Below are positions 3,038 through 6,076 of a stretch of 64,000 bases of DNA, piece after piece. Under the pieces are notes generated by a model. It searched no databases. It was not told the origin of the DNA and saw only the letters and a list, made by a program, of their open reading frames with translations. Positions within the stretch are counted from its first letter, which is position 1; every line of letters starts with the position of its first letter. The stretch covers positions 512,001 through 576,000 of the forward strand of contig JAHPZA010000006.1 of assembly GCA_019058445.1 (NCBI GenBank). Direction: 5' to 3'. A program made the position numbers and the translations under genes. This DNA is from Promethearchaeota archaeon. GTDB taxonomy: Archaea; Asgardarchaeota; Lokiarchaeia; Sigyniarchaeales; SOKP01.

Positions 3038-3805
3038 TTGAATAACAAGGGATTTACGATTAAAATTCACGATAAATTTCAGAAATGTATTGAAAAGGTT
3101 TTTTTTAAAGGAAACTCTACGAAATGGAGCCGAAAGCTCTCATTCATAGTTGGAAACTTATTTTTGATGGCATTTTTGTATAGTTTTCTTATAATGCTTG
3201 TCCTCTACAACTGGACTGGTTCTTTATATCCGGAAGGGTCTGGATATCGCTTAGACTTTCTCGGTGATAACCTAATCCCATTTATACCCGAAATGGCAAT
3301 TTTTTATGTATACTTATTCTTTCCTATGGTAACATTAACACTCATCTATTTTGCATTTATAGACGAAGAAAAGGGATACGCTTTAGGCTGGGCCATAGTA
3401 ATAATGAATCTAATCGCAACCTTTGTTTATATAATATTTCCCGTATCAACCTATTGGTGGAGACAAGAACTTTTAGCTAATAGAATTAAAGGGAACGTTT
3501 TTGCGGAAACAATGTATTTTTATTACGAAAACGAGACTTCCTTTAATTGCTTTCCAAGCATGCACGCAGGGATGTCAACTATGTGTTTTTTTGTGTGGTA
3601 TCAGTATTATAAAATAAAGCCTAATATGAGAAAAAAGATAATCTCAATAGTATCCTTTATCATCGCGGTTGGTACGATATTATCTACACTTTTCGTAAAA
3701 CAACATTATATTGTTGACGAAATCGCGGGAGTTTTACTAGCGTATATTGTTGGTAAATATATTTTTCGTTTGTTCTCCAACTGGGAAAAATCCTTAAAAG
3801 AATAA
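3038..3805 (+). CDS. PAP2-superfamily membrane phosphatase/phosphotransferase (inositol-phosphorylceramide synthase-like)
   Basis: NCFPSMH and STLFVKQHYIVD catalytic motifs; about 6 TM helices. Confidence 0.85.
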   Translation: MNNKGFTIKIHDKFQKCIEKVFFKGNSTKWSRKLSFIVGNLFLMAFLYSFLIMLVLYNWTGSLYPEGSGYRLDFLGDNLIPFIPEMAIFYVYLFFPMVTLTLIYFAFIDEEKGYALGWAIVIMNLIATFVYIIFPVSTYWWRQELLANRIKGNVFAETMYFYYENETSFNCFPSMHAGMSTMCFFVWYQYYKIKPNMRKKIISIVSFIIAVGTILSTLFVKQHYIVDEIAGVLLAYIVGKYIFRLFSNWEKSLKE

Positions 3806-3919
3806 AATCTTACCTTCTTAACCGCGGAAAATTTTAAATTTAAAACTTTACTTTACATTATATCTTATTTTGAAAAAACTTTAAGACCTCAAAATAAGAA
3901 AAAAAGTTTTATAATCGAT

Positions 3920-4080
3920 GCCAAGGTGGCGTAGCCCGGTGAGTGGGAGATTTTCTCTACTTGGGTAGGAACGCACCAGATTCATCGGAATTGCCGATAA
4001 AGGTGAAACTGAAGATCTGGGTATCGCGAGCTTTTGTTGCGATTCGCAACTGAACGCGAATTCAAATCTCGCTCTTGGCA
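3920..4080 (+). tRNA. trnF: tRNA-Phe(GAA) with three BHB introns (3940-3968, 3980-4007, 4031-4060)
   Basis: Removing 29+28+30 nt gives a 74-nt cloverleaf: GCCAAGG TG GCGT AGCCCGGGA ACGC A CCAGA CTGAAGA TCTGG GTATC GCGAG TTCAAAT CTCGC TCTTGGC A. Each intron has a 4-bp central helix and two 3-nt bulges. Confidence 0.93.
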
Positions 4081-4081
4081 T

Positions 4082-6076
4082 TTATAACATTTTCCATTTT
4101 GCCTTTAAATCATCAATTATTTTTTTAGCCTGTATATTATAATTAATTTTTTCGTCTTTTGAAGGATAACCCTTTGCATTTACTTTATACATCAAAATTT
4201 CTTCTATTTCATTGATTATTGACTCTTTACTCACATCATATCCATGCTTTTTACATAATCTTCTTAAATCATCCCGATATTCTTTAGAATAATAAGTTCT
4301 TCTATTGGGATATGTCTTAGATAATTCACTTTCTATTTTTATTCGTTTTTCAGGATCACCTCTACTCTTTAAAACCAATCCAAGAGTTTTTGCTCGATAA
4401 TCCCATTTTCTTGGTTTTATTTCATTGATAAATTTGACTACATCTTTTTTAGATTCTATATGTAATTCATAAGTATTTTCTCTTGTAACAGGATAGATTT
4501 TTCCTGTTTTTATATCATTATTTTCACACATTTTTTTGAAATCCTCCATAAGTGGGTAGGAGGCGTTTTTAAATCCAATGCGGATACAATTGTTTGCTTT
4601 ATGTATATGAAATGAGCCATCAGTATCCACTAATCCCCTTAAACCACGCTTTTGATATTCTTTGTTTTCCATGATCCATTCAGGTACACTTACTTGATTT
4701 ACTTTCTTATCTCCCGGTTTAAGCCCTAAATTAACTAATTCATTGACTATTTCTTTACCATTAATTGTTTGTTTTATCGCATTTGCCTCTTTCGGTTCAT
4801 ATATACTGGGATATTTATTAAATACCTTTTTCATCAAATTATTAATATCTTTTACGTATTCTATTTCTTCTGACTTATTTGTTGTTACTCTAAAACGTTG
4901 TTTATTATGGGGAATACTTCCATCTCCGAGACCAATGCACACCATTTCCGCTGAATCACCATTTTTAGTGAGATTATTAATTTCTTCTATTGTATCTTTT
5001 TCTGAATCATAGTTTTGTCGGATATCTTTTATAATTTCCTCTTGAGTTGTCATTTTACTGTTATCATTTGATTTTTCAATGTTATTTATTCTTATCTCCG
5101 TGATTTTACGTTCTGTTGGTTTATCTTCCTTAATTTCATGTTTAATTTCTTTTCCATATAACTTTTCTAACTCCTTAAAACTAGTAATATCCAAAGAATA
5201 TTCTTTATATAAAGCATTACCAATATAAGTTCCAATTTTTCTACTTATTTGATTATTTGAAATTCCTCTACTATTTAGATTATCACAGACTTGTTTTAAT
5301 TTAGAAGGTTCGATTTGAATTCTGTATTCGATTTCTGATTTGGGTATATTTTCTACTTTAGCAATTTCTCTCCCTATCAAGTTTTCAAGTTTTGCTAAAG
5401 ATTCGTTCTTAATTCCATAATTACGATATAAAACACCCTTGATATCACATCCAATTTGTTCTGAAATTTGTATTAACGTATATCCCTTAGTTCTTAATTC
5501 ACCCCAGACCTTTTTCAAATCATTCTGGTCTAATTTAATTCTTTCATTTTCGTTTTGCTTGTTTTTTATAATTTCTGAACTTTGATTTTCAAGATTTTCT
5601 GATAAATTCTCATTTGCACCTGAAATGTTTAATTCATTTCCTGTATCTTCGATTAAATTTTGATTAGTATCTTGATCTTCGAGCTTATATTCTACTCCTT
5701 TCACAAAATCAATCTCATTACTATTTCCTTCTAATTTATCTTCAATTCCTTCAAGAAAATCTTTATTCGTATCCTTATTTTCTGATTTATCTTCTATTCT
5801 ATCTGTAAAGATCACATCTGTATCTGATTTTTTTGATCTAACACACTCAGGTATAATCGCGACGATATCATATAATTTATCTGTATCTACTGGTTTATCT
5901 TCTATGTTTTCTAAAAAATCTATATTTATGTTATTATCATCTAGCTTATCATATAATTCCTCAATAAACTCCTTCTCATTATCTTGATCATTATTATTAT
6001 CTTCAATTTTTTCCCCATAATCCTCTTTAGAATCTTTGAGATCATCAAGATTTTCGTCATATTCATTGCCAGACAT
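4082..6076 (-). CDS. Free-standing double-motif LAGLIDADG homing-endonuclease-like protein with acidic N-terminus and two HTH-like repeats
   Basis: Motifs AEMVCIGLGDGSI and LRGLVDTDGSF; intein-type LGLKPGDK...VSVPEWI linker; no Hint termini; duplicated ~55-aa unit (LK.V...L...G......IS..IG......LY..Y......LE.L.G.EI). Confidence 0.85.
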   Translation of the reverse strand: MSGNEYDENLDDLKDSKEDYGEKIEDNNNDQDNEKEFIEELYDKLDDNNINIDFLENIEDKPVDTDKLYDIVAIIPECVRSKKSDTDVIFTDRIEDKSENKDTNKDFLEGIEDKLEGNSNEIDFVKGVEYKLEDQDTNQNLIEDTGNELNISGANENLSENLENQSSEIIKNKQNENERIKLDQNDLKKVWGELRTKGYTLIQISEQIGCDIKGVLYRNYGIKNESLAKLENLIGREIAKVENIPKSEIEYRIQIEPSKLKQVCDNLNSRGISNNQISRKIGTYIGNALYKEYSLDITSFKELEKLYGKEIKHEIKEDKPTERKITEIRINNIEKSNDNSKMTTQEEIIKDIRQNYDSEKDTIEEINNLTKNGDSAEMVCIGLGDGSIPHNKQRFRVTTNKSEEIEYVKDINNLMKKVFNKYPSIYEPKEANAIKQTINGKEIVNELVNLGLKPGDKKVNQVSVPEWIMENKEYQKRGLRGLVDTDGSFHIHKANNCIRIGFKNASYPLMEDFKKMCENNDIKTGKIYPVTRENTYELHIESKKDVVKFINEIKPRKWDYRAKTLGLVLKSRGDPEKRIKIESELSKTYPNRRTYYSKEYRDDLRRLCKKHGYDVSKESIINEIEEILMYKVNAKGYPSKDEKINYNIQAKKIIDDLKAKWKML

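Follow-up and report, generated by a model that had tools for sequence, protein, structure and literature searches.

The window analysed here is the whole stretch of 64,000 nucleotides that corresponds to positions 512001–576000 of contig 6 in a Lokiarchaeial assembly of 4.61 Mb (10 contigs, 92.6% complete). Close to its start, at positions 3920–4080 on the plus strand, lies a tRNA-Phe(GAA) gene in which four exons (20, 11, 23 and 20 nt) are separated by three introns of 29, 28 and 30 nt. In standard numbering, the introns interrupt the tRNA at 19/20, 30/31 and 53/54, and nothing is inserted at 37/38. The parts of the gene, the sequence following it and the open reading frame on the opposite strand are:

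3920–3939, plus strand: exon 1, with the acceptor 5′ strand, U8-G9, the D-stem 5′ strand and the D-loop up to G19
3940–3968, plus strand: intron 1, 29 nt, in the D-loop at 19/20; helix GCCC/GGGT, bulges GG|T and AG|G, inner hairpin
3969–3979, plus strand: exon 2, with G20-A21, the D-stem 3′ strand, A26 and C27-G30
3980–4007, plus strand: intron 2, 28 nt, in the anticodon stem at 30/31; helix CACC/GGTG, bulges AG|A and AA|A, inner hairpin
4008–4030, plus strand: exon 3, with A31, the anticodon loop containing GAA, the anticodon-stem 3′ strand, the variable loop and the T-stem 5′ strand up to G53
4031–4060, plus strand: intron 3, 30 nt, in the T-arm at 53/54; helix CGCG/CGCG, bulges AG|C and AA|T, inner hairpin of 6 bp
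4061–4080, plus strand: exon 4, with the T-loop, the T-stem 3′ strand, the acceptor 3′ strand and the discriminator A73; CCA is not encoded
4081–4100, plus strand: T-rich 3′ trailer, a likely transcription stop; T-runs of this kind are seen after most of the genome's other tRNA genes
3881–4081, minus strand: 66-aa ORF over the tRNA gene, a mechanical reading frame judged spurious

Upstream of the tRNA gene, an ORF of 255 aa for a PAP2-superfamily phosphatase (3038–3805, plus strand) looks ordinary. On the other side, an ORF of 664 aa with a LAGLIDADG_3 domain (4082–6076, minus strand) ends one base past the tRNA, with the two genes arranged tail to tail. With regard to a promoter, TATA-like words were found at varying distances upstream of the tRNA genes in this AT-rich genome.

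Parsing of the three introns by script revealed a completely paired central helix (4/4) and two bulges of 3 nt in every case, as well as inner helices of 7, 2 and 3 bp leading to the hairpins in introns 1, 2 and 3, respectively. The 5′ side of the central helix consists of exon bases and the 3′ side of intron bases, and a 3-nt bulge is located 3′ of the helix on each strand. When all six cuts are set after the second bulge base, the spliced tRNA-Phe comprises 74 nt with 21 of 21 stem pairs, is called by ARAGORN as tRNA-Phe(GAA) with a perfect cloverleaf and folds into a cloverleaf in ViennaRNA (−26.0 kcal/mol). The conserved bases U8, A14, G18-G19, U33, G53 and C61 and the T-loop TTCAAAT are in place. 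From the yeast and E. coli systems, G20, G34, A35, A36 and A73 are known as the Phe identity set, and all five are contained in the spliced product. A first-pass annotation, made from the sequence alone, had proposed this gene with the same three sites, intron lengths, helices and cut rule, a perfect 74-nt tRNA after six cuts and no intron at 37/38, all of which was borne out by the script parse, by ARAGORN and, for the introns, by the blind search described in the following.

This search was performed on the locus with flanks of 80 nt and without the earlier coordinates, by enumerating BHB-like candidates and then any path through them that yields a cloverleaf. It returned the same three introns, with an intron 1 of 27 nt as the sole alternative. 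When 128 lengths are taken together, about 0.18 equally stringent candidates are found per base, which corresponds to about 1.4e-3 (~1/700) per defined pair of ends. Since three motifs, each with a chance of about 1/700, are found exactly at the junctions which the cloverleaf requires, a chance occurrence is excluded. In the alternative solution, both cuts of intron 1 are shifted inwards by one base (3941–3967), resulting in a CCCG/TGGG helix, a 76-nt tRNA and an 11-nt D-loop. This variant obtained the same stem score (21/21) in the blind search, and GCCCG and TGGGT can form five pairs; however, orthologues devoid of the 19/20 intron, including L010 and L020 of the same genus, feature the 9-nt D-loop predicted by the 29-nt cut. 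The uninterrupted orthologues consequently argue for an intron 1 of 29 nt, and the shorter version appears very improbable.

Further evidence for the three introns was obtained from related genomes. The 20-nt exon 1 is present in identical form in 52 contigs, nearly all of which belong to MAGs of Promethearchaeota/Promethearchaeia, with a few labelled Hermod-, Hod- or Odinarchaeota and with one member of the same genus (G002, isolate ABR15). Orthologues were parsed in two ways, by a motif-aware search and by motif-free spliced alignment. Two related Lokiarchaeia MAGs (L064 and L071) harbour intron-less orthologues which are identical to the spliced product at 71 of 74 positions, and the differences comprise one compensatory T-stem pair and a C-to-T exchange giving G7-U66. 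It is these intron-less orthologues, not the spliced sequence itself, that reach 65 bits on the Rfam tRNA model, where the cut-off is 29. For each of the three junctions, some orthologue is uninterrupted there and has the same sequence across the junction. The orthologue L011, which lacks intron 3, shares the T-arm 5′ strand and the T-loop across 53/54, with the T-stem 3′ strand being one base off (G-U for G-C). In the closest relative, G006 of the same genus, a compensatory change in the acceptor stem converted G6:C67 to C6:G67.

An alignment of eight precursor genes (A1) showed invariant exons, including exon 2, and variable introns. At the sequence level, intron 1 has little in common with its counterparts. 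No other site is as widely occupied as its position at 19/20 (in the motif-free alignment, 40 of the 58 distinct orthologues), and the introns found there feature the same GCCC/GGGT helix, which is paired 4/4 in all nine BHB-parsed examples. Intron 2 has sequence homologues at 30/31 in other genomes (score of 18 vs. a null maximum of 11). When seven genes were aligned without gaps, 92% of its cells were paired and six pairs had changed on both sides, whereas controls slid by 1–3 columns were just 28–47% paired. Genes with T in place of the exon base C28 of the intron 2 helix have G or A as its partner in the intron. A homologue of intron 3, 31 nt long, was found at the same site (53/54) of L042 and L054. 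Its hairpin arms read ATCGCA/TGCGAT, those of the present genome GTTGCG/CGCAAC; both sides have changed and the pairing is kept. Regarding a possible copying of introns, a comparison with 84 tRNA introns from this genome and the tRNA-Phe orthologues gave no match exceeding the shuffled null for either intron 1 or intron 3. In this comparison clear homologues were obtained for intron 2 alone, all of them at 30/31.

This mode of conservation is also relevant to the question of whether the minus strand encodes a 66-aa protein, with the tRNA-like pieces being coincidental. An ATG-to-stop frame of 66 codons does span the gene, but it has no match to a Pfam family and its exact product is absent from a collection of 15 billion predicted proteins. 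The conservation is RNA-like, with exons that are invariant, introns that vary and yet keep their pairing, and length differences of 1 nt. Owing to such 1-nt differences in intron length relative to the closest relative, the frame of the ORF would shift. In addition, the locus has a G+C content of 50% in a genome of 31%, as is the case for other structured RNA genes, and is flanked by very AT-rich sequence. That the protein is real has, in our view, practically no chance of being correct. According to the first-pass annotation, the tRNA gene was masked by this spurious ORF. The ORF exists mechanically and we likewise judge it to be spurious, but the masking found no support, given that the product does not occur in the protein collection. 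The expectation that standard annotation would likely miss the gene, on the other hand, held for both tools used: ARAGORN called no tRNA across the whole window, and Rfam at the gathering score reported nothing at the unspliced locus. At relaxed Rfam thresholds, only the 3′ part of the unspliced locus was seen, with 14.7 bits.

When the spliced sequence was searched against the 4.61-Mb assembly by short-word BLAST, all 74 nt were recovered only at this locus, with tRNA-Trp as the next best cluster. Another intact tRNA-Phe, considered in the first-pass annotation as an argument against the gene, was consequently not found in the assembly by this search. A second tRNA-Phe candidate at G000 C4:114052 was dismissed as a chance match, as it consists of a 23-nt match to the anticodon arm inside a 388-aa ORF, without other tRNA parts. 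One could still suppose that the interrupted gene is a decaying or unexpressed copy and that a working tRNA-Phe is hidden in the ~7% of the genome left unassembled. The assembly is in fact incomplete, and the essential gene for EndA alpha is missing from it together with its neighbours. However, a decaying copy would hardly be expected to have all 21 stem pairs, the conserved bases and all three splice motifs intact. Moreover, its differences from the compact orthologues are compensatory, and relatives have retained this gene along with these introns. Exon 1 occurs once per contig in 50 of the 52 contigs of relatives; the exceptions are the bin60 MAG, which has it on two contigs, and one match in a bacterial MAG. 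Decay of the gene is accordingly a proposal to which we attach very little weight. With high confidence, the locus represents a bona fide tRNA-Phe(GAA) gene with three non-canonical BHB introns and the sole functional copy in this Lokiarchaeial genome.

The three motifs share with the canonical hBHBh′ intron at 37/38 the 4-bp helix, the two 3-nt bulges and the cut after the second bulge base. Unlike the canonical case, none of them is located at 37/38, the exon strand of the helix is provided by the D-loop, the D/anticodon stems or the T stem, and the outer helix is absent or limited to 1 bp (0, 1 and 0 bp next to the motif in introns 1, 2 and 3), which deviates from the strict hBHBh′ form. 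They are relaxed motifs of the HBh′ type, i.e., the substrate class of broad-specificity EndA. In folding predictions, the unconstrained MFE structure already contains the BHB of intron 1, while the BHBs of introns 3 and 2 can be forced at a cost of 1.2 and 5.8 kcal/mol, respectively. All three at once amount to −49.2 kcal/mol vs. −59.8 kcal/mol for the MFE (a cost of 10.6), which is still lower than the shuffled mean of −46.3 kcal/mol. As the helices of introns 2 and 3 make use of bases belonging to the mature D/anticodon and T stems, alternative precursor folds would be needed, and the introns are probably removed in a stepwise manner.

For the maturation pathway, the following route can be proposed: a precursor of ~161 nt would be transcribed from the tRNA-Phe gene, EndA would excise each intron by cutting both of its 3-nt bulges behind their second base, RtcB would ligate the four exons and the CCA enzyme would add the 3′ end. 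The cleavage itself and the order of the steps are inferred. RtcB is encoded as an open frame of 492 aa (G000 C1:114713–116020; PF01139, 574 bits), and an archaeal CCA-adding enzyme is encoded in the genome as well. The assembly contains one EndA homologue of 202 aa (contig 9, 770310–770918), in which, compared with EndA of M. jannaschii, the catalytic Tyr is replaced by Phe and the catalytic His by Asp, while the Lys is kept. The loss of two of three catalytic residues points to a structural, non-catalytic subunit of the beta type. Two EndA paralogues are present in 36 of 40 relatives. The second paralogue, as found in G006 of the same genus, has the catalytic subunit of A. pernix as its best match, keeps Tyr, His and Lys and aligns without gaps through the A. 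pernix crenarchaeal loop. A synteny search, for which the neighbours were taken from three relatives, found EndA alpha and these neighbours to be absent from this assembly. This is probably due to an assembly gap, and we infer that EndA alpha is present in the organism. Asgard archaea were previously assigned an (alpha-beta)2 EndA with an L1 loop conferring broad specificity (Kaneta et al., 2018, PMC5829648), and the two-subunit enzyme with loop found in the relatives agrees with that study. The first-pass annotation had stated that such triple-intron genes need a broad-specificity endonuclease, which fits motifs without a proper outer helix in a lineage with a two-subunit EndA whose alpha subunit bears a crenarchaeal-type loop. 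As for the EndA subunit architecture it had proposed to determine, the two-subunit type can be stated for the relatives, whereas this assembly contains only the beta subunit.

To place the gene in its clade, introns were counted by motif-free alignment in 58 distinct orthologous precursor sequences; three genes scored as having five introns were solved as four by the motif search. The numbers are:

0 introns: 2 of 58 tRNA-Phe genes
1 intron: 13 of 58 tRNA-Phe genes
2 introns: 20 of 58 tRNA-Phe genes
3 introns: 13 of 58 tRNA-Phe genes
4 introns: about 10 of 58 tRNA-Phe genes

The sites used by tRNA-Phe introns in the clade include 15/16, 19/20, 22/23, 30/31, 37/38, 51/52, 52/53, 53/54, ~56/57, 58/59 and 59/60. 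Four-intron genes with interruptions at 19/20, 30/31, 51/52 and 59/60 occur in several related genera (e.g., L003, L005, L006, L038, L052 and L079), and their precursors reach ~195 nt. The comparison of tRNA-Phe introns across Asgard genomes that the first-pass annotation had suggested is thereby available, for these 58 orthologues, as presence or absence per site. It also qualifies the statement that triple-intron tRNAs are rare and best known from Thermoproteales: examples from that order are known, but rarity does not apply to this clade, in which such genes are common (see the counts above), and multi-intron Asgard tRNAs have been published.

In three complete Asgard genomes, 92–95% of the tRNA genes were reported to contain introns, often several and non-canonical (Valentin-Alvarado et al., 2024, Nat Commun, PMC11291895). 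For three focal Asgard families, a recent preprint arrived at 2.2 intervening sequences per tRNA gene, with a maximum of five in a single gene (Goswami et al., bioRxiv Oct 2026, 10.64898/2026.10.13.758758), compared with ~0.9 per gene in other Asgard families (Goswami et al., 10.64898/2026.10.13.758758; Valentin-Alvarado et al., 2024, PMC11291895). According to the same preprint, tRNAscan-SE misses mainly inserts in the D-arm and many independent gains are inferred; the example chosen there is the Atabeyarchaeia-1 tRNA-Phe(GAA), a gene with three intervening sequences, and Lokiarchaeia are not named in its main text (Goswami et al., 10.64898/2026.10.13.758758). The gene described here resembles these published cases in having several short introns (~20–30 nt) per gene, most of which interrupt non-canonical sites such as the D-arm and the T-arm, in its BHB motifs, in being missed by standard tools and in intron sets that differ between related genomes. 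It differs in that the published cases centre on Atabeyarchaeia and Jordiarchaeia/Freyrarchaeaceae, whereas the present genome is Lokiarchaeial and most of its resolved tRNA genes contain one intron.

In Thermoproteales, three-intron tRNA genes have been known since 2008 (Sugahara et al., 2008). The two systems have in common up to three non-canonical BHB introns per gene and, presumably in the present case, the need for an (alpha-beta)2 EndA that carries the crenarchaeal loop. The Thermoproteales belong to another phylum, and their introns form sequence families read as transposition, unlike introns 1 and 3 of the tRNA-Phe gene, which showed no significant similarity to other tRNA introns of the genome. 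The gene is a well-supported Lokiarchaeial instance of the known Asgard multi-intron tRNAs and not a new phenomenon; as such, it extends the recent reports of heavily interrupted Asgard tRNA genes by a case from a Lokiarchaeial genome. The presence and absence of introns at exact sites in 58 orthologues provides material for the question of how introns arrive and leaves the current picture unchanged.

In this context, the adjoining free-standing LAGLIDADG gene could be imagined to make tRNA-Phe a hot spot of intron turnover in Lokiarchaeia, where inserts that break the target of the nuclease would be kept as immunity. Turnover itself is considerable, with 0–4 introns at about ten sites among the 58 orthologues. 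LAGLIDADG homologues (40–57% identity over the C-terminal 280–300 aa) adjoin tRNA-Phe in L008/L031, L016, L042 and L069. None was found next to tRNA-Phe at the other ~50 orthologous loci examined, and across the orthologous loci there is no consistent pattern between this neighbour and the number of introns. In L054, the 53/54 intron is present and the nuclease gene is absent. Altogether, we consider a role of the nuclease in intron turnover improbable.

With tRNA-Phe included, about 33 tRNA genes as a lower bound could be resolved in this genome: three have no intron, about 21 have one and about seven have two (likewise lower bounds), and only tRNA-Phe has three. The introns are mostly ~30 nt long and non-canonical. 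The tRNA-Gly(TCC) gene contains a 30-nt intron in the T-arm, parsed after nt 52 (Sprinzl ~52/53). Genome-wide, Rfam detected 16 tRNAs and ARAGORN made 23 calls, several of them with wrong anticodons and only four intron-less genes among the finds. With an essential tRNA gene being invisible to both programs and only these 23 ARAGORN calls, a tRNA complement derived from standard tools would look defective. Three ARAGORN calls of “tRNA-Phe(aaa)” are in fact tRNA-Val(CAC), tRNA-Thr(TGT) and tRNA-Ala(CGC) with non-canonical introns (e.g., C2:114737–114874, C6:266381–266478 and C6:1204320–1204423), and the calls of “SeC”, “Pyl” and “Stop” are intron-derived artefacts of the same kind. There are at least four further tRNA-like loci; those at C4:101268–101284, C4:102953–102969, C9:655982–656074 and C6:1113257–1113389 have a good T-arm and acceptor 3′ end. 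Their 5′ parts gave no parse even with very relaxed intron motifs, and these loci may contain irregular or more numerous introns. Two of the four show initiator-like A1:U72 ends.
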